NCBI GenBank assembly: GCA_040219085.1
Contig: JAVJTC010000007.1
Span: forward strand, 3,995 to 67,994
Length of the DNA stretch: 64,000 nt
DNA from: Acidimicrobiales bacterium
GTDB taxonomy: Bacteria; Actinomycetota; Acidimicrobiia; Acidimicrobiales; JAVJTC01
Direction: 5' to 3'
In this document: piece by piece, positions 3,127 to 61,728 of the stretch
Position numbering within the stretch: the stretch's first letter is position 1
Layout: every line of letters begins with the position of its first letter
Position numbers and translations under genes: made by a program
Notes under the pieces: generated by a model
Database searches by the model: none
What the model was told of the DNA's origin: nothing
Seen by the model: the letters and a program-made list of their open reading frames with translations, nothing else

Positions 3127-3233
3127 GCGCGCCTACTCTCGACCGACGTTCTAGGCGCACTCTAGGCACAAACGCCTCCGTCGCACCACGCTCAACCAGG
3201 CCAATAGGCCTTCTGACCTGCGATGTTACAGAG

Positions 3234-3304
3234 AGCGGGTGACGAGAATCGAACTCGCGTTCTCAGCTTGGGAAGCTGATGTTCTACCATTGAACTACAC
3301 CCGC
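3234..3304 (-). tRNA. tRNA-Gly (anticodon CCC)
   Basis: The reverse complement gcgggtgtagttcaatggtagaacatcagcttcccaagctgagaacgcgagttcgattctcgtcacccgct folds as a cloverleaf with anticodon loop ttCCCaa. Confidence 0.9.
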
Positions 3305-18479: not shown

Positions 18480-18679
18480 GGCGTTGGCGAGGCTAGTTGC
18501 CGCGGGCGCCGTCGGCGGAATCGCGGCGCCTTGCTTGTAGGAACGCGCCGGCGACAACCGCTGACGCCCGGCCGGGGCGCAGCCCGGGCGGAGGATGTGC
18601 ACGGCGTACCGCGTGGGGTCCGAACGAGTTCACGATCCGGAAACACTCGCGAAAAACGGTCGTCCTACCTTCTGAGGCC

Positions 18680-30382: not shown

Positions 30383-30393
30383 AAGATGATGTG

Positions 30394-30466
30394 TGGTCGG
30401 GACCGGCGTCGATCCGGTGACCTTCCGCTTTTCAGGCGGACGCTCTGCCAACTGAGCTACCCGACC
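30394..30466 (-). tRNA. tRNA-Phe (anticodon GAA)
   Basis: The reverse complement is ggtcgggtagctcagttggcagagcgtccgcctgaaaagcggaaggtcaccggatcgacgccggtcccgacca. Anticodon loop ctGAAaa. Confidence 0.9.
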
Positions 30467-30486
30467 GGGACCGGTACGGAACCGGT

Positions 30487-30564
30487 GTGGCGGTCCTGAC
30501 GGGATTTGAACCCGCGACCTCCGCCTTGACAGGGCGGCGTGCACTCCAGACTGCACTACAGGAC
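30487..30564 (-). tRNA. tRNA-Asp (anticodon GTC), CCA encoded
   Basis: The reverse complement is ggtcctgtagtgcagtctggagtgcacgccgccctgtcaaggcggaggtcgcgggttcaaatcccgtcaggaccgcca. Anticodon loop ctGTCaa. Confidence 0.9.
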
Positions 30565-30644
30565 CGTAGAGCCGTCACACTGTACCAACCGCGCGCCCGA
30601 CACCAATCTTCGAACTCGGCGAATCGCGCAGAAACCCCGGTGGT

Positions 30645-31148
30645 TCAGCCCGTGAAGCCGATTGCGGGGACCTGGACAGCTGCGGCGCCGACCCAGACGT
30701 ACTCCCATGCCTCGGGGTTGGGGCCCTGTTGCGCGACACCGGGCGGATACGACGGGACGAAGCCGAAGCGGCGGGCATTGGTGTAGTCGTCGGCGCTCAG
30801 CCACGCGAACGCGGCTGTCGACTCGAACTGGGCGAAGCGCTCCGTTCCCTCGGAGATGTCGACCGCGTAGTCGCGCCCGACCGCCATCGTCCGGAGCCGC
30901 TCGTCGGCGGTCGGATCGCCGGTGCTGGTCGGGGCGGCGGTCTGAGCCTCGGTCCCCGCGAGTGGCCCGTCGTCGAACAGCGACACGTAGCGGGCGTTGT
31001 CGACGGGCTCGATCGCCACGTCGCCGTCGATCAGTTCCTCGGTGGCGGCGATGAGCGGCGCGATCACCGCCGCCAGCATGGCCAGCACGATGATGACGGC
31101 GAATACGGCCGCCATCGCTCTGCGTCTGTCGCGTCGCATCGGGCCCAC
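30645..31148 (-). CDS. Membrane-anchored hypothetical protein located inside the tRNA cluster
   Basis: The N-terminus RRDRRRAMAAVFAVIIVLAMLAAVIAPLIAA is followed by a soluble domain. GC3-rich codons. No family recognised. Confidence 0.5.
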   Translation of the reverse strand: MGPMRRDRRRAMAAVFAVIIVLAMLAAVIAPLIAATEELIDGDVAIEPVDNARYVSLFDDGPLAGTEAQTAAPTSTGDPTADERLRTMAVGRDYAVDISEGTERFAQFESTAAFAWLSADDYTNARRFGFVPSYPPGVAQQGPNPEAWEYVWVGAAAVQVPAIGFTG

Positions 31149-31167
31149 CCCTGGCGTGTGTTCGGCG

Positions 31168-31240
31168 CACCCCCAACGGGATTCGAACCCGTGTTACCGC
31201 CTTGAAAGGGCGGCGTCCTAGGCCGCTGGACGATGGGGGC
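31168..31240 (-). tRNA. tRNA-Glu (anticodon TTC)
   Basis: The reverse complement is gcccccatcgtccagcggcctaggacgccgccctttcaaggcggtaacacgggttcgaatcccgttgggggtg. Anticodon loop ctTTCaa. Confidence 0.9.
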
Positions 31241-34062: not shown

Positions 34063-34355
34063 GATTCGCGTTCCATGGACGCCCACAGGCCGTGTTCCTG
34101 GAGGCGCAGCACGTCCATCTCCGCCTTCTCCCGGGGGCCGTCGGAGACGACCGCGCGCCCCTCGGTGTGGACCTGCATCATGAGCTTCTGAGCCTTGGCC
34201 AGGCTGTATCCGAACAGCTTCTGGAAGACCCAGGTCACGTAGTCCATGAGGTTGATCGGGTCGTCCCAGACGATGACGATCCACGGTCGGTCGACGTCGA
34301 CCTCTTCGTCGAGGTCCGTCTCGGAGATGGTGCTGGGCGAGGGACCCGGACTCAT
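34059..34355 (-). CDS. clpS: ATP-dependent Clp protease adaptor ClpS
   Basis: [41 protein letters not shown]. Confidence 0.9.
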
Positions 34356-35320
34356 CGCAGCGCGGGGGCGGGTGTCGTGTCGGCGGTGTCGCCGTCTGCG
34401 TCACCGGGGTCGGGGCCGTCGACGTCACCGGGGTCGAAGCCGGCCACCGCGAGGTGAAGACGCAGGACCACCGTCACCAGTGCGACGGATCCGGCGACGT
34501 GGAAGCCGACGAGTAGCACGGGGACGTCGTTGAAGTACTGGACGTAGCCGATCGCAGCCTGGGCGACGATGACCGCGAGGACGGTGTTCGACCGCGTGAT
34601 CTGTTCGGCCGAGGCGCCCTCACGGCGCAACACGACGGCGAGGCCGATGGCGACCAGGCAGAGCGCGACGACCGTCGACCCGTGGATGCGCGCGACGTCG
34701 GGCACGTCGAACCCGAGCCGTTCCACGTCCTCGTCGCCCCCGTGGGGACCCGAGCCGGTGACGATCGTCCCCGTCACGACGGCCCCGAGCGTGAGCAGGC
34801 TCGTGAGTCGGACCAGGCGGACCTGCGCGGGACCGTGCCCGTCGCGGGGCCGGTGGGCGCCGTCGGCGAGATGGTCGGGGATCCCCGACCGGTGGTGCAG
34901 GACCACCGCGTTCCAGATCAGGACGATGGACAACAGGAAGTGTGAGATCACGAGCCACGGGGTCAGGTGGTAGATCACGACGAGTCCGCCCAGGACGATC
35001 TGGCCGAGCACCCCCGCGACCAGTCCGAGGCTCCACAGCGTCAGATCCCGGCGACGTGGCCGACGGGCGAGTGACCCGAGCACGGCGGCGATCACCGCGA
35101 TCGACACGATCCCGGTGATGAGCCGGTTCACGAACTCGATCAGCGCGTGGTACTCGAGATCCGCGTGGAACTGGTCCTCTTCGCACGACGGCCAGTCCGA
35201 ACAACCGAGTCCCGAACCGGTCAGGCGGACCGCCGCGCCGGTGACGATGATCACGGCGAGGGCGACGAGTGCCACCACGGTGATCGCGCGGTAGCGCTCA
35301 GGAGAAATGCGCCGGCGCAT
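34352..35320 (-). CDS. ctaA: Heme A synthase (COX15/CtaA)
   Basis: [25 protein letters not shown] and paired His in TM helices ([15 protein letters not shown]). The start was moved to ATG 35320. Divergent from ctaB. Confidence 0.85.
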
Positions 35321-35442
35321 GACGTCGATCCTACGGCCGCCCGCTCCGGTGGGGCACACCGGGGCGACGATCGTCGAAACTCTCGCGGTACCTGCCCGCG
35401 TGCTTTGGTCAACCGGCCCCGACGGTCGTACCCTGCACGGAC

Positions 35443-36351
35443 GTGGAGGCCGTCATCGGAGTCGAGTCGAACGTCGGTGTCCGCCGACGGGTTGCGGCAT
35501 ATGTCGCGCTGACGAAGCCGCGGATCATCGAGCTGCTGCTCGTCACCACCGTGCCGACGATGATCGTCGCCGAAGAGGGCGTCCCCTCGGTGTGGCTCAT
35601 GATCGCCACCGTCATCGGCGGCACGCTCGCCGCCGGCGGCGCCAACGCCATCAACATGGTGGTGGATCGCGACATCGACGCCGTGATGCACCGCACCCGC
35701 AACCGCCCGCTCGTCACGGGCGAGGTGACCCCGACCGCGGCGCTGGTGTTCGCCCTCGGCCTCGAGGCCGTCTCGTTCCTGTGGCTGTGGGGTTTCGTCA
35801 ACCTCCTCAGCGCGGTGCTCGCCGTGAGCGCGACCGCGTTCTACGTGTTCGTGTACACGTTGTGGCTGAAGCGCCGCTCCACGCAGAACATCGTCATCGG
35901 GGGAGCGGCCGGGGCGGTCCCCGTGCTCGTCGGGTGGGCCGCCGTGACCAACGATCTGTCCTGGGCGCCGCTGGTCCTGTTCGCCGTGATCTTCTTCTGG
36001 ACGCCGCCCCATTTCTGGGCGCTCGCCATCCGTTACCGCGACGACTACTCGGCGGCGTCGGTGCCGATGCTGCCGTCGGTCGCTCCCGAGCGCGCCGTCG
36101 GGATCAACATCGTCGTCTACAGCGTCATCGTCGTCGGGCTGTCCGTCGTGTTCGGTCCCGTGGCCGGCCTCGGCATCGGCTACCTCGTGGCGGCGCTGGT
36201 CAGCGGGGCCGTGTTCCTGGCCTACGCCGTGCTGGTTCTGCGCTCTCCGACCGAGGCGAACGCGATGCGCCTGTTCGGCTGGTCGATCACCTACGTGGTC
36301 GTCCTCTTCGCGGCGATGGCCGTCGACGAGGTCGCGAGATCCGGACTGTGA
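35443..36351 (+). CDS. ctaB: Protoheme IX farnesyltransferase (heme O synthase)
   Basis: YVALTKPRIIELLLVTT, GGANAINMVVDRDIDAVMHRTRNRP and FFWTPPHFWALA. Confidence 0.92.
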   Translation: MEAVIGVESNVGVRRRVAAYVALTKPRIIELLLVTTVPTMIVAEEGVPSVWLMIATVIGGTLAAGGANAINMVVDRDIDAVMHRTRNRPLVTGEVTPTAALVFALGLEAVSFLWLWGFVNLLSAVLAVSATAFYVFVYTLWLKRRSTQNIVIGGAAGAVPVLVGWAAVTNDLSWAPLVLFAVIFFWTPPHFWALAIRYRDDYSAASVPMLPSVAPERAVGINIVVYSVIVVGLSVVFGPVAGLGIGYLVAALVSGAVFLAYAVLVLRSPTEANAMRLFGWSITYVVVLFAAMAVDEVARSGL

Positions 36352-36492
36352 GACCGATGTCGGGCCCCGGGATTGCGGATCGGCCCGTGGCGTTGTGTAC
36401 TGTCCCCCGCCGGAGGGAGTCCCACGGCGACGCCCTCCGCCGCGTAGCATCTCCGAAGCAGCCGACCGCGTGGTCGCACAGAACGTGAACGC

Positions 36493-38229
36493 ATGACTGC
36501 CACCGACACCGCCACCTCTGAGACCACCGACCCGGCCACACGGCCGGACGATGAGGTCTCCCCTACCCGCAACCCGGTCGACGCCTTCGTGTCGGTCCTC
36601 ACGACGGGTGATCACAAGGTCGTCGGCCGGCTCTGGATCGTCATGTCGCTGCTGGTCGGGGGATTCACGCTCGTCCTCGGCGCCCTCGTCGGCATCGAGC
36701 GCACCGACACCGCGGGTGTCGACGTCTTCGCAGGGCTCGAGGCCTACCTCCAGTTCTCGACGCTCTACCGGGTTCTGCTCGTGTTCGGATTCGTCGTGCC
36801 GCTGTTCATCGGCCTGGCCACGTACCTCGTTCCGCTGCAGATCGGTTCGCCGTCGGTGGCGTTCCCCCGGGCGGCGGCGGCTGCGTTCTGGGCGTGGCTG
36901 GTCGGCCTCGGCACCCTGATCACCGCCTGGGCACTCGACGGGGGCCTCGTCCCCGGTGGCGAGCCCGAGGCGGTCGAACTCTCGCTGCTGGCCTTCGGCG
37001 CCACGGTGATCGCACTTCTGCTGGCGGCGGCCGTCATCGTGACCACGGTGTTCACCCAGCGGGCCGAGGGCATGACGATGGACCGGGTGCCCCTGTTCTC
37101 GTGGTCGATGGTGGTCGCCGGTGGCCTCTGGGTGCTCTCGCTGCCGGTACTTCTCGCCAATCTCGGCGTCGCCTGGATCGACATCCGGGGCGAGGGCCCC
37201 ACGCTCTACGGCAACGGCGAGAACCTGTGGGGTCAGGTCGAGTGGGCCTTCGACCAGCCGCAGGTGTTCGCCTACCTGATCCCGGCGCTGGGCGTCATCG
37301 GTGAGGTGTTCGTCTCGGCCTTCCGGGCCCGCCAGCCGCTGCACTTCGTGATGCAGGGAGCGATCGGTGCGGTGGGCGTGCTCAGCTTCGGCGCCTACGC
37401 GCAGACGTTCTTCAACCCCACCGCCGACACCACGCCGCCGTACGTCGTGGCCGGAGTCGCCATCGCTCTGCCGGTGCTCGTTCTCCTCGGCGGTTGGGCC
37501 ACGCTCGCCCGTGACGCGGGCGGCCGGCCCACCCCCTCGCCCCAACTCGGGTTCGCTGTCGCGACCGTCCTCGCCGTGCTGGCAGCGGTAGCGGTCGGTG
37601 TCGTGAAGGTGCTCGGCGGACTGCTGGGCTTCCTGCGGGAGTTCGGCGCCGACACACAGAGTTGGCAGGCCGATCTCGACGACTTCCTCGACCCGTTCGA
37701 GGACCTGCGGGGCTCGGCCATCGAGTCGGGGCTGCTGAACGTCGTCGTGCTCGCCGGGTTCATCGGTGCGGTCGCCGGCCTGTACCACTGGGCACCCAAA
37801 CTCTTCGGCCGCCGCCTCAACCCGCTCGTGGGCGGTCTCGCGGCGCTGCTGATCCTCGTGGGGACACTCGCACTCGTGGTGCCCGATGTGATCACCGGGT
37901 TCATGGACCAGCCCGATCCGCTCGCGGCGGGATTCCCGCTCCTCGGAGACTTCCGTGACGGCGTCGAGATCCTCAACGCGATCTCGATGATCGGCGCCTT
38001 CGTGGTGTTCGCCGGACTCGCCCTGGTCGCTCTCGACGTACTCGGTGCCATCGCCGTGCCCGGAGCGGGCGACGGCGACGATGCCGACGACCTCGGTGGT
38101 GTCACTCTCGAGTGGTCCACCACCAACCCGCCGCCGCCGGGCAACTTCGCAGCGGCTCCGGTGGTACGGAGCGAGGCGCCGCTTCTCGATCCGCCCGCCG
38201 GGGACGCGACCGACGGGGAGGACGCCTGA
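36493..38229 (+). CDS. Heme-copper oxidase subunit I-like protein lacking all canonical heme/CuB ligands
   Basis: Collinear similarity to the window's own CtaD: [16 protein letters not shown] vs [44 protein letters not shown] vs [39 protein letters not shown] vs GLYFWWPKMFG. Ligand positions are Y, Q, F, Q and T, and there is no HFH motif. Confidence 0.8.
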   Translation: [578 protein letters not shown]

Positions 38230-38867
38230 TGGCCACCGCCACGATGGACCCGGGCACGACCGCTCCGCCGCCGGGTCGATTCCTCGCCCCGATTCTGCCC
38301 CGTCGACGGACGCTGCTCGTCGCCACTGCGCTCGGTTCGGGCGCCACCATCATGTTCTTCGCGGGGATGCTGGGGGTCTACCTCTCCGAGCGGGCCGACT
38401 TCCTGCGTGACAATCCCGGAGGCAGCTGGATCCCGTCGTCGGTGACGGTGGAGCTCACCGCTCCGTCGGTCATCGCCTGGACGCTGCTGTTGTCGGTGGT
38501 GACGATGCAGTGGGCCGTGTACTCCGCAGCACGCGACGACCGACCCCACACGCTCATCGCAACCTCGGTGACGGCCCTGTTCGGCGTGGCCGTGATCAAC
38601 CAGTTCGTGTTCCTCTACAAGCAACTCGGACTCGAGATCGACGCAGGTGGCGTCAGCACCGCTCCGGTTCTCATCTACGCCGTGACAGGCACGTTCCTGT
38701 TGATCCTCGTGGTCGCACTCACCCTGCTCGCGACCATGTCGTTCCGGGCCCTGGCCGGTGGAGACCTCCGGTCCCACGTCGACGGCATGGCCGCGGCGTC
38801 GCTGTACTGGTACGTGATGGTCTTCGTCTACATGATCGTCTGGGTGGCGATCTTCATAACCAAGTAG
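38229..38867 (+). CDS. Cytochrome c oxidase subunit III-like membrane protein (divergent paralog)
   Basis: TGATG overlap with the upstream gene. Five TM helices. The C-terminus AAASLYWYVMVFVYMIVWVAIF compares with canonical CtaE VGLYWHFVDIVWIVIF. Confidence 0.65.
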   Translation: MATATMDPGTTAPPPGRFLAPILPRRRTLLVATALGSGATIMFFAGMLGVYLSERADFLRDNPGGSWIPSSVTVELTAPSVIAWTLLLSVVTMQWAVYSAARDDRPHTLIATSVTALFGVAVINQFVFLYKQLGLEIDAGGVSTAPVLIYAVTGTFLLILVVALTLLATMSFRALAGGDLRSHVDGMAAASLYWYVMVFVYMIVWVAIFITK

Positions 38868-38872
38868 CTGCC

Positions 38873-39745
38873 ATGTTGACTCACGGATTCAAACTCTTCT
38901 TCGGCTTCACGGCGATCGCCGTGGTCGCCGCCATCATCTACGGCGTCGCGAGCGGTGACACGACGGCGGGGAACTACCTCGGCGTGGTCGACCGCCAGGC
39001 GTGGAAGGGCGCCATCAGCCTCGGTTGGCAGGGCGGCGTCGGCGATCACACGGGCTACGTCATCCTCTGGCTCCTCGCCATCTCCGGCGGTGTCGTCGCG
39101 CTGGTCCTCGCCTACTGCCGTGACGCGGACCCCGACGCCGTCGCCGAGGTCATGCAGACCGACGGCGTACCTCCGGCCCAGGCCCCCACCCGCCCGGACG
39201 CCTGGCCCCTGATCGGCGCTCTCGCCGTCGGTGTCACGATCATCGGTCTCGTCACCCACGCGGCCATCTTCGTCATCGGTGTGATCCTGCTGGGCGTGGT
39301 CGCCCTGGAGTTGATCCTGTCCACCTGGGCCGACCGGGCCACCGGCGACCCCGCCACCAACGCCGAGATTCGGGGCCGCGTGGCCCGTCCGATCGAGGTC
39401 CCGGTGCTGGGGGCCGCTGCGATCGCCGTCGTCGTGCTGGGCGGATCGCAGGTCATGCTCGCCGTGAGCAAGGCCGCAGCCGTGTGGGTCCTGACGGGTG
39501 TCGCGACGGTCGTCTTCGTCGGTGCCATAGCGCTGGCGGCGATGCCCAAGCTCAGCCGGCCGATCATCGGCGGTGCGGTGGCCCTCATCGTCGTGGCCTC
39601 TGTCGTCGGCGGCATCGTCGGCGCAGTCGTGGGCATCCGCGACATCGAAGAGCACCACGACGAGGAGCATTCCGAGGAGATCGAAGAGGATGCGGCGGCC
39701 GTCGGGGTGGCCGATCTCGTCGGCACCGTGGAGGACGAGTCGTGA
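38873..39745 (+). CDS. Polytopic membrane protein of unknown family with an acidic C-terminal tail
   Basis: About seven hydrophobic segments. The tail is RDIEEHHDEEHSEEIEEDAAAV..VEDES. It starts 5 nt after the upstream stop, and its own stop overlaps the ctaC GTG (GTGA). Confidence 0.6.
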   Translation: MLTHGFKLFFGFTAIAVVAAIIYGVASGDTTAGNYLGVVDRQAWKGAISLGWQGGVGDHTGYVILWLLAISGGVVALVLAYCRDADPDAVAEVMQTDGVPPAQAPTRPDAWPLIGALAVGVTIIGLVTHAAIFVIGVILLGVVALELILSTWADRATGDPATNAEIRGRVARPIEVPVLGAAAIAVVVLGGSQVMLAVSKAAAVWVLTGVATVVFVGAIALAAMPKLSRPIIGGAVALIVVASVVGGIVGAVVGIRDIEEHHDEEHSEEIEEDAAAVGVADLVGTVEDES

Positions 39746-41061
39746 GCAACGCGTCCTCGCGTCATCGCGCGGCGTCTGCCGACTTGGCGCACCGGGTTGA
39801 CGAGGTCCACACTGCGGATGTGCCTCCCCGTCGACGTCCCATCGGCCGGACCGCTGCCCTCGTGGCGACCGTCGCCCTTCTGGCCACGGCCTGCGGCAAC
39901 AAGCCCCTCGACACCTTCGATGATCAGGGTCCGGCAGCCCGCGATATCAACAGCGTGATCCTGCCCGTGTTCGGCATCGCGATCATCGTCCTGATTCTGG
40001 TCTCCGGTGCGATCCTGTTCACGGCCTGGCGCAACCGGGTCTCCGCCAAGGACGCCGAGGCCGCTGCCCTGGCCAACGGCACCGATGCCGACCCGACGGG
40101 CCTCTACGGCGACGACGAGTTCCCCGAGCAGGTCCATGGCAACACCACGCTGGAGATCGGCTGGACGGTGATTCCCACGGTGATCCTCTCGGTCGTCGCC
40201 GTGTTCACGCTCATCGGGATCTTCAAACTGAACGACGTCAGCGCGGACGAAGGGGACCTGCGGGTGACCATCGTCGGCCAGCAGTGGTGGTGGGAGTACC
40301 AGTACCACCTCGACGGCGATACCGACACGCCGCCGGACTTCGTCAACGCGAACGAGCTCGTCATCCCCGCCGGCCAGCAGGTTCCGCTGGTGGTCACCAG
40401 CCGCGACGTCATCCACTCGTGGTGGATCCCCCAGCTCAACGGCAAGCGCGACGCGCTCCCCCTGGGGACCTCGCCCTGGACGATCGAGGCCGACGACCCG
40501 GGCCGCTACAAGGGCGTCTGCACCGAGTTCTGTGGACTCTCGCACGCGTACATGCGCATGTTCACCATCGCCCTCTCCCCCGAGGACTGGGACGCGTGGG
40601 CGGAGAACCAGATCCTGCCCGCCACCGTCCCCGAAGTCGGAACACCCGAGGACGCCGGTTGGCAGATCTACCAGGCCAACTGCGCCCAGTGCCACGTCAT
40701 CACCGGACTGACCGACACGAACCTCGACGGCGAGATCGACGACTGGGACATCTACGACGGGCCCAACCAGATCAGCCCGGCACTGCTCTCGGGCGCGGCG
40801 CCGAACCTCACCCACTTCGCCAGCCGGACCACCTACGCGGGATCGATCTTCGACCTCTACGTGGACCGGGCCGAGGGGAGCGACTACCTCGACGTGGCGG
40901 CCGAGGGCGACGTCGACGTCGGCCAGCTCACGGCGTGGTTGCGCAACGCTCCCGCCGAGAAGGCCAACCGTTGGCAGGACGGGCGCGGCATGCCGGCGTT
41001 CACCAACCTGACGCCCGACGACATCACCAACCTGATCGCCTTCCTCACGAGCCTCGACTGA
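39742..41061 (+). CDS. ctaC: Cytochrome c oxidase subunit II with fused cytochrome c domain (caa3-type)
   Basis: Lipobox LLATAC, the CuA site HSWWIP...CTEFCGLSHAYM, and C-terminal heme motif CAQCH with ..GMPAF. Confidence 0.9.
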   Translation: MSNASSRHRAASADLAHRVDEVHTADVPPRRRPIGRTAALVATVALLATACGNKPLDTFDDQGPAARDINSVILPVFGIAIIVLILVSGAILFTAWRNRVSAKDAEAAALANGTDADPTGLYGDDEFPEQVHGNTTLEIGWTVIPTVILSVVAVFTLIGIFKLNDVSADEGDLRVTIVGQQWWWEYQYHLDGDTDTPPDFVNANELVIPAGQQVPLVVTSRDVIHSWWIPQLNGKRDALPLGTSPWTIEADDPGRYKGVCTEFCGLSHAYMRMFTIALSPEDWDAWAENQILPATVPEVGTPEDAGWQIYQANCAQCHVITGLTDTNLDGEIDDWDIYDGPNQISPALLSGAAPNLTHFASRTTYAGSIFDLYVDRAEGSDYLDVAAEGDVDVGQLTAWLRNAPAEKANRWQDGRGMPAFTNLTPDDITNLIAFLTSLD

Positions 41062-41110: not shown

Positions 41111-43138
41111 ATGGCGATCACCGAAGAACCCCTCCAGCTGACGACCGGCGACACGGTCGCCACGGTCGAACGCCCGATGGGCGCGCTCACCCGGCCCCAC
41201 GGGGACAAGGGTTGGCGCAGCTGGCTGTTCACCGTCGACCACAAGCGCATCGGCATCATGTACGGCGCCGTGTCGATCTTCTTCTTCGTCGTGGGCGGCA
41301 TCCAGGCCCTGATCATCCGCCTCCAGCTCGCCCGTCCCGAGGGTCGTATCGTCTCGGAGGACCTGTACAACCAGCTGTTCACCATGCACGGCGTCACGAT
41401 GCTGTTCCTTGTGGGCATCCCACTCGGTGCCGCCTTCGCCAACTACCTGTTGCCGTTGCAGATCGGTGCGCGTGACGTCGCCTTCCCGCGTCTCAACGCC
41501 TTCAGTTTCTGGTGCTTCCTGTTCGGCGCGCTGTTCCTCAACTCGTCGTGGTTCCTCGGCGGGGCGCCCGACGGTGGCTGGTTCGCGTACGCGCCGAACA
41601 CGGGCGTCGCGTTCTCGCCGAGCGACGGAATGACGTTCTACGCGCTGGGACTCCAGATCCTCGGTATCGCATCGCTCGTCTCGGCGGTCAACCTGATCAC
41701 GACGGTGCTCAACATGCGGGCGCCCGGCATGTCCATGTTCAAGATGCCGATCTTCACGTGGATGATGCTCGTCGTGCAGTTCCTGCTGCTGTTCGCCATG
41801 CCGGTCATCGCGGTGGCGCTGTTCTTCTTGACCTTCGACCGCCTCTACGACGCCAACTTCTTCAACGTCGCCGCCGGCGCCGATCCGCTGCTGTGGCAGC
41901 ACCTCTTCTGGATCTTCGGTCACCCCGAGGTCTACATCCTCATCCTTCCCGCCTTCGGCGTGATCTCCGAGATCATCCCGACCTTCAGCCGAAAGCCGAT
42001 CTTCGGTTACCCGTTCATGGTGTTCTCCGGCATCGTCATCGGCTTCATGGGCTGGGGCGTGTGGGCCCACCACATGTTCACGTCGGGCATCGGCCCGGTG
42101 TCGGTGGCCGCGTTCAGCCTCTCGACGATGTTCATCGCGGTGCCCACCGGCGTGAAGGTGCTCAACTGGGTCGCGACGATGTGGGGTGGTCGCCTCCGCT
42201 TCACCACGGCGATGCTGTTCGCTTCGTCTGTCGTGGCCATGTTCACGATCGGCGGCTTGTCGGGCGTGACCCACGCGGTCGCTCCGGCGGACACCCAGCA
42301 GACCGACACCTACTACATCGTCGCCCACTTCCATTACGTGATCTTCGGCGGCATCATCCTCGGGCTCTTCGGCGGCCTGTACTTCTGGTGGCCCAAGATG
42401 TTCGGCCACATGTTGAACGAGAAGCTCGGCAAGGCCAACTTCTGGACCATGCTGATCGGCTTCAACCTGACCTTCTTCCCGATGCACATCCTGGGCCTGC
42501 AGGGAATGGCGCGGCGCTACCACACATACTCGGCCGAGGATGGTTTCGGGGCGCTCAACCTGTTGGTCTCGATCGGGTCGTTCGTCATCGCCCTCAGCGT
42601 CGTCTTCTTCGTGATCAACATCCTCTACAGCCGCAAGAAGGCGAAGACGTCGCCGCCGCCGGGACCGGACCCATGGGACGCGCGCAGCCTCGAATGGAGC
42701 GTCGCGTCGCCGACCCCGGTCCACAACTTCGACACGATCCCGACGGTGGAGCACCAGGACGACTGGTGGCACCGCAAGTACGGGTACGACGAGAACGGCA
42801 AGGTCGTCCGCCTGGCCTCGGCGGCCGAGATCGCCCAGAAGGGTGACAGGACCGACGTTCATCTGCCGTCGCCGTCGTACTGGCCGCTCGTCCTCGCCGG
42901 AGCGCTCCCGGTTCTCGCGTACGCCCTGATGTACTCGCTGTGGCTGCTCGTCCCGGCGGGCCTGCTCATCGTCGCGTCGCTGTTCGGTTGGGCGCTCGAG
43001 CCCGTCGACGATCCGGATGTGCCCCATGGGGGCCACGGCGGCGATGGTCATGGTGGCCCCGACGGCGATCCCGACGGCGACGTGACGGCGGCGCTCGACG
43101 AGGCCTCGACCACCGAGGAGGGCGCTCCCGTTGGCTGA
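41111..43138 (+). CDS. ctaD: Cytochrome c oxidase subunit I (with an approximately 100-aa C-terminal extension: 2 TM plus a His/Asp-rich tail)
   Basis: All ligands are present: FTMHG, WIFGHPEVY, WAHHMF and VAHFHYV. The extension is SYWPLVLAGALPVLAYALMYSLWLLVPAGLLIVASLFGWALEP...HGGHGGDGHGG. Confidence 0.95.
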   Translation: MAITEEPLQLTTGDTVATVERPMGALTRPHGDKGWRSWLFTVDHKRIGIMYGAVSIFFFVVGGIQALIIRLQLARPEGRIVSEDLYNQLFTMHGVTMLFLVGIPLGAAFANYLLPLQIGARDVAFPRLNAFSFWCFLFGALFLNSSWFLGGAPDGGWFAYAPNTGVAFSPSDGMTFYALGLQILGIASLVSAVNLITTVLNMRAPGMSMFKMPIFTWMMLVVQFLLLFAMPVIAVALFFLTFDRLYDANFFNVAAGADPLLWQHLFWIFGHPEVYILILPAFGVISEIIPTFSRKPIFGYPFMVFSGIVIGFMGWGVWAHHMFTSGIGPVSVAAFSLSTMFIAVPTGVKVLNWVATMWGGRLRFTTAMLFASSVVAMFTIGGLSGVTHAVAPADTQQTDTYYIVAHFHYVIFGGIILGLFGGLYFWWPKMFGHMLNEKLGKANFWTMLIGFNLTFFPMHILGLQGMARRYHTYSAEDGFGALNLLVSIGSFVIALSVVFFVINILYSRKKAKTSPPPGPDPWDARSLEWSVASPTPVHNFDTIPTVEHQDDWWHRKYGYDENGKVVRLASAAEIAQKGDRTDVHLPSPSYWPLVLAGALPVLAYALMYSLWLLVPAGLLIVASLFGWALEPVDDPDVPHGGHGGDGHGGPDGDPDGDVTAALDEASTTEEGAPVG

Positions 43139-43794: not shown

Positions 43795-44127
43795 ATGACC
43801 GCCACCGACGTCGAGCACGCTGAAAGCCACGAGGACGGCCACGCGCATCCCTCGGACTGGGACTACGCGCGTATCGCACTGATCCTGGGTGTCCTCACGG
43901 CCATCGAGGTCTTCACGTACTTCGAGTCGGTTCACAATCTCGGCACGAACGCGCTGCGGGTGATCCTGGTCGTGTTGATGGTGCTGAAGTTCGTCTACGT
44001 CGGTGCATGGTTCATGCACCTCAAGTTCGACAAGCCGATCCTGCGCAACCTCTTCGTCATGGGGCTGAGTCTCTCGTTGCTCGTGTACCTGGGGATGTTG
44101 ACGGCGTTCCGGGTCTGGCCCACCTGA
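43795..44127 (+). CDS. ctaF: Cytochrome c oxidase subunit IV (prokaryotic COX4/CtaF type)
   Basis: About 110 aa with three TM helices. LVVLMVLKFVYVGAWFMHLKFD is typical of COX4_pro. Confidence 0.8.
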   Translation: MTATDVEHAESHEDGHAHPSDWDYARIALILGVLTAIEVFTYFESVHNLGTNALRVILVVLMVLKFVYVGAWFMHLKFDKPILRNLFVMGLSLSLLVYLGMLTAFRVWPT

Positions 44128-44128
44128 C

Positions 44129-45115
44129 GTGACCGCCCTGCTCGCTGCCGACGTCGACGTCTGGGAGTTCGAGCTCCACCCCGAGGTGTGGCTGATCGTC
44201 GCCGCCGCGATCGGGATCGGCTGGTATGTCGTGAAGGTGATCGCGCCCCACGCCGTGCCGGCGGGCACCCCGGCGGTCACCACCGCCCAGAAGCGCTACT
44301 TCGTCGCGGCCCTCGCGGCGCTCTACATCGCGTCCGCGTGGCCTGTCCACGACATCGCCGAGGAGTACCTCTACTCGGTGCACATGATCCAGCACCTGCT
44401 GATCACCTTCGTCGTGCCGCCCCTGTTCCTCCTCGCGACCCCGACGTGGCTGGCCCGCCTCGTCGTCAGCGAGGACGGTGAGTCCGGTGTCTGGGTCAGG
44501 CGGCTGGCGCACCCGGTCGTCGCGGGAGTCCTGTTCAACGCGGTGATCGCGCTCACGCACCTGCCGTGGGTGGTCAACACCTCCGTCGAGAACGGCCCTT
44601 TCCACTACTTCGTCCATCTCGCGGCGTTCGCTGTGGCCATGCTGATGTGGATCCCCGTGGCCGGGCCTCTACCGGAGCTCCGACTCAGCCTGCCCGGGCA
44701 GATGATCTTCCTGTTCACGATGTCGATCATCCCGACCGTGCCCGCAGGGTTCCTCACCTTCGCCGAGGGCGCTCTGTACGACTCCTATGATCACGACGTC
44801 CGCCTGTGGGGAGTGTCGATCCAGACAGACCAGCAGACCGCCGGGCTGATCATGAAGGTGGTCGGTGGGTTGTTCCTGTGGACCATCATCGCCATCTTGT
44901 TCTTCCGCTGGGCGAAGCAGCACGAAGCGCCGCGGCGACCGGGACGGACGGTCGCGTCCGGTGCGGCGGTGGGCGAGTCGGCGGACTCAACCGGGTCATC
45001 TCCGCCCCCAGAGCGGACCGGATCGGACGCGCTGACGTTCGACGAGGTGGAGCGGGCGTTCCGCGAGTCGGGCCCTGCGCCCGTCGAGCAGGGGCGGGCA
45101 ACCGGCGACGGGTGA
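44129..45115 (+). CDS. ctaG: Cytochrome c oxidase assembly factor CtaG (Bacillus type, Caa3_CtaG)
   Basis: YSVHMIQHLLITFVVPPLFLLATP, polytopic, in the terminal position of the cta operon. Confidence 0.8.
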   Translation: MTALLAADVDVWEFELHPEVWLIVAAAIGIGWYVVKVIAPHAVPAGTPAVTTAQKRYFVAALAALYIASAWPVHDIAEEYLYSVHMIQHLLITFVVPPLFLLATPTWLARLVVSEDGESGVWVRRLAHPVVAGVLFNAVIALTHLPWVVNTSVENGPFHYFVHLAAFAVAMLMWIPVAGPLPELRLSLPGQMIFLFTMSIIPTVPAGFLTFAEGALYDSYDHDVRLWGVSIQTDQQTAGLIMKVVGGLFLWTIIAILFFRWAKQHEAPRRPGRTVASGAAVGESADSTGSSPPPERTGSDALTFDEVERAFRESGPAPVEQGRATGDG

Positions 45116-45316: not shown

Positions 45317-46024
45317 ATGACCAGCGGGATGGGACCGATGAGGCCACCGGAACTCAGTGACGTCACGTTCCGTCCTGCAGCTGACGCGGCTGAACGCGAC
45401 CGTGGTCGCCGCCTGCAGGCCGCCGTCTACCGGTCGCGTGGTTTCGTCACGGGCATGGAGCCGGGGGCCATGCTCGTCGACGACTACGTCGAGATCGCCA
45501 CCTACTTCGTCGCGGTCACCGGCGGCGGTGAGATCATCGGCTCGGCGCGTCTCATTCCAGGCGAGTTGGTCGTCCCGCCGACCCTGAACACCTTCCACCT
45601 CGATCCGCCCTCGCGGGAGATGGTCCGTACGGTGGGCCTCGACCGGATCGCCGAGGTCGCCTCCCTCGCAACGGATCCCACCGCCCCCTATCCGTCGTTC
45701 GGCGTATCCGCCGGCTTGTACCGGGCGATGCTCCACCACTCATTGGGCTCCGGCCGCCGCCACGACGTCTGGGTCGCTGCGGTGGAACCGGCGCTCCTGC
45801 GCATCCTCCACCGGGTGATGCGCATCCCACTCGACGTCATCGGGGACCCGGGCCCCTACTTCGGCGCTGAGCGGACACCCATCCGCATCGACCTCGTTCC
45901 GGGAATGACCCACGTCCGCCGCCACGAACCGGAGGTGTGGGACTTCTTCCAGACGGGAATGGTCATCGACCTCACGAGGTCGGATGCGCCCGCTGCCGCC
46001 CGCGCCGACCGCACCGAGGGCTGA
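45317..46024 (+). CDS. GNAT-fold N-acyltransferase resembling N-acyl amino acid synthase (FeeM) / autoinducer-synthase-like proteins
   Basis: About 235 aa. AAERDRGRRLQAAVYRSRGFV..., ..YFVAV..GEIIGSARLI.. and ..IAEVASLA.. match my memory of the FeeM / exosortase-associated acyltransferase layout. This has not been verified by HMM. Confidence 0.4.
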   Translation: MTSGMGPMRPPELSDVTFRPAADAAERDRGRRLQAAVYRSRGFVTGMEPGAMLVDDYVEIATYFVAVTGGGEIIGSARLIPGELVVPPTLNTFHLDPPSREMVRTVGLDRIAEVASLATDPTAPYPSFGVSAGLYRAMLHHSLGSGRRHDVWVAAVEPALLRILHRVMRIPLDVIGDPGPYFGAERTPIRIDLVPGMTHVRRHEPEVWDFFQTGMVIDLTRSDAPAAARADRTEG

Positions 46025-46070
46025 CGGAGTCCGGGGTCGGCTGTGGCACAGTCACGCAACCGCCATCCTC

Positions 46071-49000
46071 ATGATCGGACCCGCGCGTGCCGATCCTGAC
46101 ACGGTCGTGAAGACAACTACCTGGCGCTGGGTGCTCGCAGGGGGCACGGCCGCCGCGCTCATCGGCGTGGCGGGAGGAGTGTTCGCCGCGCTCGCACGAG
46201 GTCTCGTGGTGGTCGGCTTCGTCGTCGTGATCGTGACGGCGCTGCGCCGCACCGCGGCACTCCAGACCCGCCCGTGGATGGTCGTCGCTGCCGGCGGCCT
46301 CGTCACCACCCTGTCCGCGCTCATCCGCGTCGTCCACGGTGCCATCGTCGACGAGAGGTACCCCTACCCGTCTCCCGCGGACCCCGTCGTCTTCGTGGGT
46401 TACGGTCTCATCGCCGCCGGTGGGGTGTGTTTCCTGAGGGCGCGTACGAAGACGCCCAGCATCGACGCCGGCGTCGATGCCGCACTGGTCACCGGGCTCG
46501 CTCTGTTCCCGCTCGCGACCGTCGTGATGCCCCAGTACTTCACCGACTCGTCGGTGGTGATCTACGAACGCGCGGGCACCGCCTTCTACCTCCTGCTCGT
46601 CGGCGTCCTCGTCTTCGTCACGGCCCGGTTGTCCTTCGGGCCGGGCGAACGTAACCAGTCGTACTACCTCCTCGCCGTCGCCGGAGCGATCCTGATCTCC
46701 AACGACGTCTTCCTGCGCCTCGACGCGGCGGGCTACGACCAGGCCCTCGACGCAGCGTTCACCATCGCCCCGTTCGCCTTCGTTTTCGCCGCGGCGGCGA
46801 TCACGCACCCGGGAGCGGCGCGCCTCACCTCCGAACCGGACTTCAGGCCGCGCCGCCTCACGTCGCGACGCATCGTCTTGTTCTCCGCTGTTCTCGTGAG
46901 CGGCCCTCTCATGCTCGTGGCCGCGGCGCTGGACTGGACCGACGCCAACGAGATCGTCGTGGCCGTCTGGTCGGGTTTGCTCTTCGTGCTCGTCGTCGTC
47001 CGCACGATCGGCCTCGTGCGCGGCCAGCAGAACATGGCCGATCGTGAGCGGGTCCTGCGAGATGCCAGCGCCGCCCTGGTGAACGTGAACACCCCGGCTG
47101 AAGCCGATGACGTACTGTGCCGGGCCGCGCTCGGCCTCGTTCCCGCGCGGCCGGTGGCGAGCGTCGCCATCATCGACAACGACCGACCTGACGGCACGTT
47201 CACCACCCTCGTACGGGACCGGCGATCCGCCATCGTCAGGTCCGAGCAGAGTCGCCCCGCGTCCCTGCCCGCCGAAGTCCGCGAGTCGGTCCACTTCGAA
47301 GAGGTCGGGCCCGCCGCGAACGAGGACGTCCTCGCCGCGCCACTCGACGGCGAGGGCCACCGGCTCCTCGTTGTGAGTACCACCTCGCTCCCGCCGATGT
47401 CGCGGGACGCACTGTTCTCACTCGCCGAGGTCGGCCGCCTCGCCCTCGAGTCGCTGTCGACCCGCGAGGAGCGGCACCGGCGACGCAGTGACCGACGACT
47501 CCGTGCGCTCGTGGAGCAGTCATCCGACGTCTTGATGGTCCTCGACGGGGACCACCGGATCTCGTTCATCTCGCCATCGTGTCGGCGCCTCATCGGCCGC
47601 CCGGACAACGAGATCATCGGGCGGGTCGTCCTGGATCTGGTTCACCCGGAGGAACGACGCGCGGTCGAACGCCTGCTGGCGCGGCACCGCGACCAGGAGA
47701 TGGTCGAAGCCCGCCTGCGCACGGATGCCACATCCGACGACCGCTGGTTCGAGGTGACGTGTCGGGACCGCAGTGCGACCGCCGATGTCGGCGGCGTCGT
47801 CGTCACGGCTCGGGACGTGACTGAGCAACGGCGCGCGGAGCAGCAGATCGAACGCAGCGAGGCCCGGTTCCGGTCGCTCGTCCAGCACACCGGTGACGTC
47901 GTCTGCGTGACCGATACCCAGGGCGTCATCACCTATGTCAGCCCGGCCATCGAGGAGGTCCTCGGCTACAGCGCCGCCGACGTGACCGGCGCAGACCTCT
48001 TCGACGTTCTCGACGAGGGTCCGGCCACCCACCGCCTCTCCAACGCCGTCCGCCTCGGGTTGACCGGTCGCCTCGACGTCGAGGTGCAGACGACGGCGCG
48101 CGACGGCCTCGTACGGATCCTCGACGTGACGGTGACCGACCTGCGCAACGACCCCGCGGTCGACGGGGTCGTGCTCAACATCCGCGACGTGACCGTGCGC
48201 CGCCAACTCGAACAGGACCTGCGCCACAAGGCCCACCACGACGAGCTCACCGGCCTCGCCAACAGGACACTGTTCACCGAGCGACTGGAAGAGGCCCTGC
48301 GCAACGAGGCCTACTCGGGTCTCGTCGCTGCCCTCTTCATCGACCTCGACGAGTTCAAGGACGTCAACGACAGCCTCGGCCACGTCGTCGGTGACGTGGT
48401 GCTGGGGAGCATCGCAGCCCGACTCCAGTCGAGCCTGCGTCTCGGTGACATGGCGGCGCGATTCGGTGGCGACGAGTTCGCGGTCCTTCTGACCGGCGTG
48501 TACGGCGAGTCCGAGATCGATGCCATCGCCGACCGCCTCCTCGCGAGGATCTCCGAGCCGCTAGCCGTCGATGGACGGTCCCTCGACATCACGGCATCCA
48601 TCGGGATCGCCGTCGACGAGGACCGCACGTCGGAGGCGTCCGACCTCCTGCGTGCCGCTGACGTCGCGATGTACCGGGCCAAGGAGGCGGGCAAGGGTCG
48701 TCACGAGATCTTCGAGCAGCACATGCAGGACCGGGCCCTCGAACGCCTCGAGCTGCGCACCGCGCTCGGCCGGGCCATCGACGCGGACCAACTCGAGCTG
48801 CACTACCAACCGATCGTCGACCTCAAGTCCACAGCGGTGTGCGGTGTCGAGGCGCTGCTGCGCTGGCAGCACCCCACCCGCGGTTGGATAAGTCCGGGTG
48901 CGTTCATCCCCCTCGCCGAGGAGACGGGTCTCATCGTCCCGATCGGCCTGTGGGTCCTGGAGAGAGCCTGTCGCGACGTCGCTCGTTGGCACGCAGAGGG

Positions 49001-49559
49001 GCACACCCCCTACCTCTCGGTCAACGTCTCGGGCCGTCAGCTGGTGGAACCCGACGTCGTCAACGCGATGTCGCGGATCGTCGTGGAGTCGGGCCTGGAT
49101 CCCAAGGCGATCGTTCTCGAGGTGACCGAGACGGTCCTGCTACCCGACGAGCCCCGCACCCGCCAACACATCGCCGAGTTCCGACGCCGTGGGTTCCGCG
49201 TGGCCATCGACGACTTCGGGACGGGCTACTCGTCGCTGCAGTACCTGCACCGCTTCACGCCTGAGATCATCAAGATCGACCGTTCGCTGGTCGGTCCCCT
49301 GGAGCACGGCGACGACGGAGCGATGGCCGAGGCCGTCATTGACCTGTCCCGCCGGGTGGGCGCCGAGGTGGTCGCGGAGGGGATCGAGACGCCCCGCCAG
49401 GTCGATCAGCTGCGGATACTCGGCGCACGGTACGGCCAGGGCTTCCTGTTCGGTCGCCCGGCTCCGATCTCCGATGGCTTCCCGGTCATCTCCTATGGCG
49501 ACCCGCAGATCCCGCAGACCCCCGGCTTCGAGCGTCGCAAGTCGACAGAGTCCCACTGA
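46071..49559 (+). CDS. Membrane sensor protein: polytopic N-terminal domain, PAS repeats, GGDEF, EAL
   Basis: About nine TM helices. PAS-like blocks lie around 47.5-48.2 kb. The GGDEF domain carries an I-site (RLGDMAARFGGDEF). The EAL domain has EALLRW, EVTET, DDFGTGYSSL and QGFLFGRP. Confidence 0.9.
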   Translation: MIGPARADPDTVVKTTTWRWVLAGGTAAALIGVAGGVFAALARGLVVVGFVVVIVTALRRTAALQTRPWMVVAAGGLVTTLSALIRVVHGAIVDERYPYPSPADPVVFVGYGLIAAGGVCFLRARTKTPSIDAGVDAALVTGLALFPLATVVMPQYFTDSSVVIYERAGTAFYLLLVGVLVFVTARLSFGPGERNQSYYLLAVAGAILISNDVFLRLDAAGYDQALDAAFTIAPFAFVFAAAAITHPGAARLTSEPDFRPRRLTSRRIVLFSAVLVSGPLMLVAAALDWTDANEIVVAVWSGLLFVLVVVRTIGLVRGQQNMADRERVLRDASAALVNVNTPAEADDVLCRAALGLVPARPVASVAIIDNDRPDGTFTTLVRDRRSAIVRSEQSRPASLPAEVRESVHFEEVGPAANEDVLAAPLDGEGHRLLVVSTTSLPPMSRDALFSLAEVGRLALESLSTREERHRRRSDRRLRALVEQSSDVLMVLDGDHRISFISPSCRRLIGRPDNEIIGRVVLDLVHPEERRAVERLLARHRDQEMVEARLRTDATSDDRWFEVTCRDRSATADVGGVVVTARDVTEQRRAEQQIERSEARFRSLVQHTGDVVCVTDTQGVITYVSPAIEEVLGYSAADVTGADLFDVLDEGPATHRLSNAVRLGLTGRLDVEVQTTARDGLVRILDVTVTDLRNDPAVDGVVLNIRDVTVRRQLEQDLRHKAHHDELTGLANRTLFTERLEEALRNEAYSGLVAALFIDLDEFKDVNDSLGHVVGDVVLGSIAARLQSSLRLGDMAARFGGDEFAVLLTGVYGESEIDAIADRLLARISEPLAVDGRSLDITASIGIAVDEDRTSEASDLLRAADVAMYRAKEAGKGRHEIFEQHMQDRALERLELRTALGRAIDADQLELHYQPIVDLKSTAVCGVEALLRWQHPTRGWISPGAFIPLAEETGLIVPIGLWVLERACRDVARWHAEGHTPYLSVNVSGRQLVEPDVVNAMSRIVVESGLDPKAIVLEVTETVLLPDEPRTRQHIAEFRRRGFRVAIDDFGTGYSSLQYLHRFTPEIIKIDRSLVGPLEHGDDGAMAEAVIDLSRRVGAEVVAEGIETPRQVDQLRILGARYGQGFLFGRPAPISDGFPVISYGDPQIPQTPGFERRKSTESH

Positions 49560-61654: not shown

Positions 61655-61655
61655 G

Positions 61656-61728
61656 TGGGCCGCCTGGGGCTCGAACCCAGCACCTTGAGATTAAAAGTCT
61701 CCTGCTCTACCCGATGAGCTAGCGGCCC
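61656..61728 (-). tRNA. tRNA-Lys (anticodon TTT)
   Basis: The reverse complement is gggccgctagctcatcgggtagagcaggagacttttaatctcaaggtgctgggttcgagccccaggcggccca. Anticodon loop ctTTTaa. Confidence 0.9.

Follow-up and report, generated by a model that had tools for sequence, protein, structure and literature searches.

Why should an operon for an active cytochrome c oxidase carry a second gene for subunit I, the product of which has lost every residue that binds heme or copper? This question is raised by a 64,000-nt stretch of DNA from an Acidimicrobiales bacterium (GCA_040219085.1, contig JAVJTC010000007.1, positions 3,995 to 67,994, forward strand; the whole stretch is termed the window below), in which the open reading frame (ORF) 36493-38229 of the plus strand encodes the protein in question, COX1' (pCOX1). 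We found that COX1' is a non-catalytic paralog of subunit I under purifying selection and not a pseudogene. Together with the products of the next two genes, COX3' (pCOX3) and memX, it would constitute a cofactor-free module, which we tentatively regard as a structural partner of the oxidase encoded in the same operon.

Homology, lost ligands, and selection of COX1'

36493..38229, plus strand: COX1', 578 aa with 12 transmembrane (TM) helices; subunit I paralog without the heme/CuB ligands, the cross-linked Tyr, and the D/K-channel residues

The ORF is intact with an ATG start, and its GC content at the third codon position (0.88) is typical of coding sequence in the window, as the original prediction for this locus had stated. 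COX1' matched the Pfam profile of COX1 (PF00115) with an E-value of 1.6e-37 and 129.8 bits against a gathering score of 34.8. In a BLASTP comparison, it aligned collinearly with the real subunit I in the window, CtaD (41111-43138), the gene of which starts 2.9 kb beyond the end of the COX1' ORF (28% identity over 569 columns; E = 3e-39). The paralogy and the conserved blocks that had been quoted were all reproduced, and the two proteins have the motifs DHK-G, PLQIG-AFPR, PLF-W, W-PK-FG, and LEW-PPP in common. The top sequence matches in PDB were the actinobacterial CtaD chains 7q21_D and 6adq_F with E-values of about 1e-38, and QoxB of Bacillus subtilis was also found. The AlphaFold2 model, which was built from the family alignment, comprised twelve TM helices with a pLDDT of 90.5 and a pTM of 0.93, and the top Foldseek matches were the CtaD proteins of Corynebacterium glutamicum and mycobacteria (TM-scores of 0.77-0.79). 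COX1' thus has the 12-TM fold of A1-type subunit I, namely CtaD of the actinobacterial aa3 and the Bacillus-type caa3 oxidases (7q21_D, 6adq_F, and 6kob_A). Based on the PF00115 profile and the 12-TM fold, COX1' is a true COX1 homologue, belonging to the heme-copper oxidase superfamily by fold and descent. On the other hand, no NCBIfam model accepted COX1'. The best score, 186.7 bits, was obtained with TIGR02891 (catalytic CtaD/CoxA), of which the equivalog cut-off is 670.75 and which the window CtaD passed with 695.3 bits.

The ligand and channel positions were read from an alignment of COX1' and 117 relatives (118 sequences), for which the window CtaD with its complete ligand motifs (TMHG, GHPEVY, WAHHMF, and HFHYV) was used as the anchor. 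The residues found in place of those of CtaD are as follows:

Helix II heme a His: Y92 in COX1'; variable in the family (Y/H/S/Q/G/F/W/A), with Tyr in 47 of the 118 sequences
CuB His1: Q255 in COX1'; Gln in 114 of 118
Glu286-equivalent: Q257 in COX1'
Cross-linked Tyr: F259 in COX1'; Phe in 115 of 118
CuB His2 and His3: Q304 and T305 in COX1'; Gln at His2 in 115 of 118, and R/P/T/S at His3
Heme a3 His: Leu within ...SGLLNVVV... in COX1'; L/V/M in the family
Helix X heme a His: Asn within ...SGLLNVVV... in COX1'; D/E/N/Q in the family

Both heme a His residues were retained in none of the 118 sequences. COX1' possesses three His in total (positions 41, 284, and 432), none of which falls on a ligand column. 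The residues for proton transfer are gone as well. In the numbering of Rhodobacter sphaeroides, the D-channel positions are changed family-wide (D132 to S/G/A, N139 to A, N121 to T/M, and E286 to Q/M), and so are those of the K channel (K362 to L/F and T359 to V/I/L). The Arg pair interacting with the heme propionates (Arg481/482) is replaced by D/E plus a variable residue across the family. The alignment therefore bears out the earlier claim that every cofactor ligand is replaced and that the three His lie elsewhere. Instead of restoring any ligand His, it revealed conserved replacements, and sequencing error is excluded because the identical substitutions occur family-wide.

None of the features of a catalytic subunit I, namely the low-spin heme His pair, the His residues for heme a3 and CuB with the Tyr, and the channel residues, was found in COX1'. 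No dedicated subunit II was found either; the loci contain no COX2 gene other than ctaC of the real oxidase. A nitric oxide reductase (NOR), be it cNOR, qNOR, or one of the newer families, requires His residues for heme b/b3 and an FeB/CuB site of three His with or without Glu/Asp, and the same columns lack His in the COX1' family; we thus rejected the possibility of COX1' being a NOR variant. COX1' shows no functional hallmark of subunit I of an oxidase or a NOR. It cannot be an oxidase, as every heme ligand, copper ligand, and proton-channel residue is lost, and it can neither catalyse redox chemistry nor pump protons.

COX1' is under purifying selection. The ratio of nonsynonymous to synonymous substitutions (dN/dS) of COX1' was 0.054 in the comparison with its closest ortholog (96% identical), and that of ctaD in the same pair was 0.057. 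The medians over 34-40 close pairs per gene (35 for COX1') were 0.135, 0.069, and 0.109 for COX1', COX3', and memX, respectively, and 0.064, 0.077, and 0.065 for ctaD, ctaE, and ctaB, respectively. Neither a broken frame, nor a dN/dS of about 1, nor a sporadic distribution, each of which would characterize a pseudogene, was observed for COX1'. Altogether, the profile search, fold, ligand columns, distribution, and dN/dS support the original view of a selected, cofactor-less 12-TM scaffold.

The conservation within the COX1' family is uneven. It is highest in TM2-TM6, in the cytoplasmic loops 2-3 and 10-11, and in the C-terminal LEW-PPP tail, and lowest in TM7-TM12 and in the periplasmic loops 9-10 and 11-12. 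The periplasmic loop between TM9 and TM10 contains a new helix, by which COX1' is distinguished from CtaD. Structures of oxidases show subunit III packed against helices III-V of subunit I, with subunit II, including the CuA domain, covering the part of subunit I that is divergent in COX1'. The conservation pattern and the subunit contacts agree with a retained partner of the subunit III type (III') and a missing partner of the subunit II type (II'). A set of polar residues conserved specifically in the family (E69, R70, Q87, R93, D230, Q248, Q255, Q304, and E492) clusters on the periplasmic side within the membrane, level with the former cofactors; R93 adjoins the position of the former helix II heme a His, Q255, Q257, and Q304 occupy the former CuB/Glu286 site, and D/E/N/Q is found at the helix X heme a position. 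We read these polar residues as filling and stabilizing the emptied cofactor pockets rather than as building a new active site.

The three-gene module and its operon

38229..38867, plus strand: COX3', COX3-like protein of 212 aa; its start codon (ATG) shares 1 nt with the stop codon (TGA) of COX1'
38873..39745, plus strand: memX, 290 aa with 7 TM helices; residues 106-152 resemble the C-terminal, subunit-IV-like hairpin (PF12270) of CtaD

The original prediction was concerned with COX1' alone, and the set of three genes to which COX1' belongs was absent from it. COX3' matched the subunit III profile PF00510 (E = 1.2e-7; 32.3 bits with a cut-off of 23.8) and can be assigned to subunit III accordingly. 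It was 22% identical to ctaE in the window (E = 1e-8), and its PDB matches were COX3 chains (E of about 3e-8). The overlap between the stop codon of COX1' and the start codon of COX3' was conserved in 66 loci, being 4 nt in 32 and 1 nt in 34 of them, and the two proteins are probably co-translated.

memX, starting 5 nt past the end of COX3', matched no sequence in Pfam, NCBIfam, or PDB. All of the named ones among its 130 homologs are termed 'hypothetical protein', and those with a taxonomic label are of Acidimicrobiales or Acidimicrobiia. The AlphaFold2 model of memX contained 7 helices (pLDDT of 80 and pTM of 0.61), for which no significant fold match was found in PDB. The hhalign comparison of the families related a stretch of 47 residues in memX (residues 106-152) to the C-terminal family of CtaD with a probability of 94.3% and an E-value of 1e-7. 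The four control families, ctaF (COX4_pro), COX3', ctaE, and ctaB, gave probabilities below 2% each, indicating no relation. PF12270 was weakly matched by 5 of the 58 members of the memX family (best E = 0.0012), and memX in the window was not among them. Altogether, the sequence comparisons mark the three genes as paralogs of subunits I and III and, in the case of memX, a probable partial paralog of the subunit-IV-like element. No subunit II copy accompanying the module was found in the window or in loci L001 and L002.

The remaining genes of the cluster encode an oxidase of the caa3 type and the proteins for its maturation:

34352..35359, minus strand: ctaA, heme A synthase, divergent; PF02628 (COX15-CtaA), E = 2e-21
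35443..36351, plus strand: ctaB, heme O synthase of the UbiA family, first plus-strand gene of the cluster; its ortholog in locus L083 matches PF01040 (UbiA)
39820..41061, plus strand: ctaC, caa3-type subunit II containing the CuA motif, fused to a cytochrome c domain; PF00116, PF00034, and PF02790
41111..43138, plus strand: ctaD, real subunit I with the full set of ligands, extended at the C-terminus by a subunit-IV-like part; PF00115 (E = 6.7e-158) and PF12270
43131..43754, plus strand: ctaE, real subunit III; PF00510, E = 3.9e-19
43795..44127, plus strand: ctaF, caa3 subunit IV (COX4_pro); PF03626 (E = 1.7e-9), and TIGR02229 with 32.3 bits, below the cut-off of 37.25
44129..45115, plus strand: ctaG, caa3 assembly factor, last gene of the cluster; PF09678, E = 1.6e-42

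The real oxidase is complete in the window. The translation of ctaC contains CTEFCGLSHAYM (CuA) and CAQCH (the CxxCH motif for heme c). The C-terminal extension of CtaD (residues about 572-630) matches the actinobacterial subunit IV (PF12270). Since both this extension and a Bacillus-type subunit IV (COX4_pro) are encoded, the active oxidase mixes features of the two types. In a study of heme A synthase evolution, CtaA of Acidimicrobiaceae is assigned to type 1.3, an unusual one carrying the H60N substitution (PMC8239418); this may bear on the handling of heme a in the lineage.

The gene order, ctaA (minus strand) followed by ctaB, COX1', COX3', memX, ctaC, ctaD (with the IV-like tail), ctaE, ctaF, and ctaG, was the same in the window, L001, L002, L083, and essentially all of the 82 loci that were fetched for the synteny analysis. 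The departures from this order were explained by contig ends or the sensitivity of tblastn. memX lies between COX3' and ctaC in most of these loci, and the module was found away from ctaCDE in none of them. We take the cluster to be a cta operon of the B. subtilis type (a divergent ctaA, then ctaBCDEFG), into which three genes have been inserted at the junction of ctaB and ctaC. By inference, this arrangement would be accounted for by tandem duplication of ctaC-D-E(-F) and subsequent loss of the first ctaC. We also considered COX1' as a remnant of an ancestral actinobacterial aa3 oxidase instead of a local duplicate. The window CtaD ranks its PDB relatives in the same way as COX1' does (actinobacterial CtaD, then QoxB), and this ranking is compatible with both origins.

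COX1' had been predicted to be translationally coupled to its neighbours on both sides. The downstream half of this prediction stands, given the 1-nt overlap of the TGA with the ATG of COX3'. The upstream half does not, as the Arg-rich ORF 35307-36488 (plus strand, 393 aa), which stops 4 nt before the ATG of COX1', is an out-of-frame artefact over ctaB, and the true gap from the end of ctaB to COX1' is 141 nt. Such an ORF is typical of high-GC DNA and can be mistaken for a coupled upstream gene. The window ctaB is 98% identical to its ortholog in L083. As for ctaC, the GTG at 39820 is implied by the 413-aa call of the L083 ortholog, and an alternative GTG is present at 39742, overlapping the stop codon of memX (GTGA); if the latter is the start, memX and ctaC are also translationally coupled.

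The scan for promoters and terminators in the operon yielded counts at the chance level, and the Rfam and tRNA scans detected no element inside it. No qcr gene for the bcc complex was found among the 20 largest predicted genes of the window that were scanned. The rest of the window is ordinary chromosome with housekeeping genes such as dnaK, purA, purB, amt, and serS. A cluster of the tRNA genes for Phe, Asp, and Glu is located at 30393-31240 (minus strand), and single genes for tRNA-Gly and tRNA-Lys at 3233-3304 and 61655-61728, respectively. The minus-strand gene at 15777-18602, next to an ABC exporter gene, has a 941-aa HdrD/GlpC-like product containing two CCG cysteine-rich domains as well as 4Fe-4S dicluster motifs. 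A gene for a 1191-aa PAS-PAS-GGDEF-EAL signalling protein (45984-49559, plus strand) follows the cta operon at a short distance, as it also neighbours the operon in L083, the closest ortholog locus, and a gene for a 235-aa FeeM-like protein lies between the two.

Distribution and wider relatives

A search of 5.8 billion proteins retrieved 372 matches to COX1' at E<=1e-10. The best 120 of them were 39-96% identical to COX1' and nearly all full length, and their named sources were Acidimicrobiia, Acidimicrobiaceae, Actinomycetota, or unclassified bacterium. In the scan of one genome per species, relatives were found in 249 genomes, the best 80 of which were examined for taxonomy. These 80 were metagenome-assembled genomes (MAGs) of Acidimicrobiales or Acidimicrobiia, or MAGs labelled only as 'bacterium', Actinobacteria, or Actinomycetota; Candidatus Microthrix, Candidatus Poriferisocius, and the marine Sva0996 group were among them. 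The cluster look-up of the relatives likewise returned MAG entries only. COX1' and its relatives are therefore widespread in Acidimicrobiales with fixed synteny. In the sources, the genes are named 'cbb3-type cytochrome c oxidase subunit I', 'cytochrome c oxidase subunit 1', or 'hypothetical protein'.

In the full-text literature searches, we found no description of a COX1 family lacking the ligands. One study of COX1 phylogeny states that subclades with long branches were removed. The newer NOR families (eNOR, bNOR, sNOR, gNOR, and nNOR) are comparable to the COX1' family in being divergent members of the superfamily that have a changed active site and do not reduce O2 (Murali et al. 2024, PMC11214002). 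The active-site Tyr is missing from them, an enzymatic function is still proposed, and the only ligand change reported among them is Asp for one His in gNOR (PMC11214002). Single active-site ligands at most are thus changed in these NORs, whereas the COX1' family has lost the ligands of every metal centre. No curated family covers COX1', and we regard the module as a pseudo-enzyme derived from an A-type oxidase.

Relatives of COX1' at other stages of ligand loss, which were likewise absent from the original prediction, were found by a profile search of 1.84 billion representatives. This search yielded 685 proteins at E<=1e-30, the best 150 of which all scored above 270 bits. In BLAST, the wider relatives form a continuum from COX1' to true CtaD. 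The alignments of these relatives were built with a keep-length option, so that the counts given here are taken at face value and need checking. At the six ligand columns of 132 full-length relatives, no His was found in 78, one in 26, two in 24, three in three, and four in one. Twenty-two of 250 sequences (P0271, P0274, P0285, P0290, and others) keep both His residues for the low-spin heme and have lost the ligands of CuB and heme a3. Judged by these residues, such bis-His relatives could be heme-binding, non-catalytic intermediates. The gene of one of them, P0401 (L087, 1001-2659), starts 10 nt past a UbiA gene and overlaps a COX3 gene.

A clade of CtaD paralogs in Gaiellaceae (P0405/P0415 and also P0413-P0428) bears some likeness to COX1', as these proteins are subunit I paralogs of Actinomycetota with lost CuB ligands and a linkage to a UbiA-family gene. 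They are about 53% identical to true CtaD and closer to it than to COX1', of which the identity to CtaD is 28%. In this clade, Arg has taken the place of CuB His1 and His3, but both His ligands of heme a, that of heme a3, the remaining CuB His, and the Tyr persist. The gene of P0415 (L088, 10001-12764) overlaps a UbiA-family gene by 11 nt and adjoins a divergent Rrf2 regulator, and no COX2, COX3-like, or memX gene was found near it. At face value, the ligand patterns point to loss of the binuclear centre before that of the low-spin heme, the clade of the window being the end point. Alternatively, several independent degenerations may have occurred among the wider relatives.

Possible roles of the module

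What, then, does an emptied oxidase do in the operon of an active one? We tentatively favour the possibility that COX1', COX3', and memX comprise a cofactor-free module acting as a structural partner of the CtaCDEF caa3 oxidase. The three products would form a stoichiometric I'-III'-IV' 'ghost oxidase' without subunit II and without cofactors. It would attach to the active CtaCDEF oxidase, or sit beside it, as a structural partner that takes no part in catalysis. The module would then be the pseudo-enzyme half of a hetero-oligomeric complex, following the same logic as the cofactor-poor paralogous subunits of other respiratory enzymes. This reading is based on the fixed linkage, the tight spacing of the genes, the conservation pattern, and a weak covariation of evolutionary rates. 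The covariation was evaluated by mirror-tree partial correlations, from which the shared phylogenetic signal was removed and for which the pairwise distances are non-independent. The coefficients, which we regard as weak evidence, were 0.37 for COX1' and ctaC, 0.37 for COX1' and ctaD, 0.50 for COX3' and ctaE, and 0.51 for memX and ctaD; those of COX1' with ctaB and ctaG were 0.13 and 0.36, respectively.

Scaffolds of this kind have counterparts among well-known enzymes. CydB of cytochrome bd, the non-catalytic alpha subunits of F1-ATPase, and NifEN for nitrogenase are cofactor-poor paralogs that are selected and work alongside an active paralog. In those cases, the participation of the paralog in the same complex, or its feeding of that complex, has been established experimentally, whereas the complex of COX1' is a putative one. 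COX1' differs from them also in belonging to a whole three-subunit shadow module. Like CtaD, COX1' is encoded in the cta operon together with a subunit-III-like partner, but it is devoid of the ligands for heme a, heme a3, and CuB, the cross-linked Tyr, Glu286, the D/K channel, and the heme-propionate Arg pair, and a subunit II of its own is lacking.

Several points speak against a structural partnership. The docking and the complex are drawn purely from genomic linkage and weak rate covariation, and the distances behind the latter are not independent; paralogs may covary through a common membrane environment. COX1' has evolved about three times faster than ctaD (protein distances of 0.92 and 0.31, respectively). 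We found no precedent for a whole pseudo-complex serving as a structural partner of a heme-copper oxidase. The position directly after ctaB and the recurrent adjacency of degenerate COX1 and UbiA genes in other lineages fit a role in heme handling or assembly at least equally well.

Such a role in heme handling or assembly, which is the main rival and which we consider somewhat less likely, would make the module a transient platform that holds heme O/A from CtaB/CtaA, or partner subunits, before the hand-off to CtaD, in a manner similar to NifEN. The module is indeed encoded directly after ctaB and opposite to ctaA, and the divergent relative in L087 lies 10 nt past a UbiA gene. The degenerate COX1 of Gaiellaceae in L088, an independent case, overlaps a UbiA gene as well. 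Furthermore, the bis-His relatives without the binuclear centre make an ancestral state that was heme-binding and non-catalytic plausible, and COX1' covaries with the assembly factor gene ctaG (partial r of 0.36). Nevertheless, no conserved heme-ligating residue is left in the clade of the window, in which even the helix II position is variable. Known oxidase assembly factors such as Surf1, CtaG, Sco, and PCuAC are small proteins and not three-subunit pseudo-complexes, and the link to ctaB may just reflect the ancestral insertion junction between ctaB and ctaC.

We regard it as unlikely that the emptied scaffold has been reused as a non-redox membrane device, such as a channel for ions, protons, or gases, a transporter, or a sensor, that is only co-expressed with the oxidase. 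The family-specific polar residues conserved in the periplasmic half of the membrane and the strong purifying selection on COX1', COX3', and memX could be understood in this way. However, the polar cluster is equally explained by structural filling of the pockets, the canonical D and K pathways have turned into hydrophobic or small residues, and in none of the 82 loci was the module found apart from ctaCDE.

It is very unlikely that COX1' is still a redox protein with heme or metal bound by non-canonical ligands such as Tyr92 and the Gln cluster. Tyr does replace the helix II His in 47 of the 118 sequences, and at two CuB positions, more than 96% of the relatives have Gln instead of His, which is a conserved and not a random change. 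On the other hand, Gln is a poor ligand for Cu or Fe, the heme-propionate Arg pair is replaced by D/E and a variable residue, and the module has neither subunit II nor any other partner for electron entry. Non-canonical heme binding by the clade of the window was rejected, because the residue at the helix II position varies within the family and the heme a3 His is replaced by L, V, or M. Finally, a decaying pseudogene or an assembly/frameshift artefact, albeit the loss of all catalytic residues is what a dead gene would display, is refuted by the intact ORFs in the window and in the relatives from 249 species-level genomes, the dN/dS of 0.05-0.14, the conserved replacements, the confident fold prediction, and the conserved overlap with COX3'.

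Returning to the structural partnership, we suggest, with considerable doubt, that the oxidase of Acidimicrobiales may be hetero-oligomeric, in that the active CtaCDEF would have a cofactor-free I'-III'-IV', a descendant of a duplicated oxidase, as its permanent counterpart. If this is true, the module would be the first heme-copper oxidase scaffold kept purely as a non-redox structural or organizing element, and the relatives with graded ligand loss would record the route from a respiratory enzyme to a pseudo-enzyme.

Heme-copper oxidases are defined by their metal centres, and surveys have kept sequences with altered sites only when hemes and a metal site remain. A large, strongly selected clade that keeps the 12-TM scaffold and the III/IV-like partners without any cofactor implies that the scaffold is useful apart from catalysis. 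As the COX1' genes currently bear the names of oxidases, metabolic reconstructions of the abundant marine, sponge-associated, and wastewater Acidimicrobiia will count a false oxidase. If the module is a part of the caa3 complex, it would represent a new architecture of a respiratory complex; if it is an assembly platform, it would represent a new type of factor for oxidase biogenesis.

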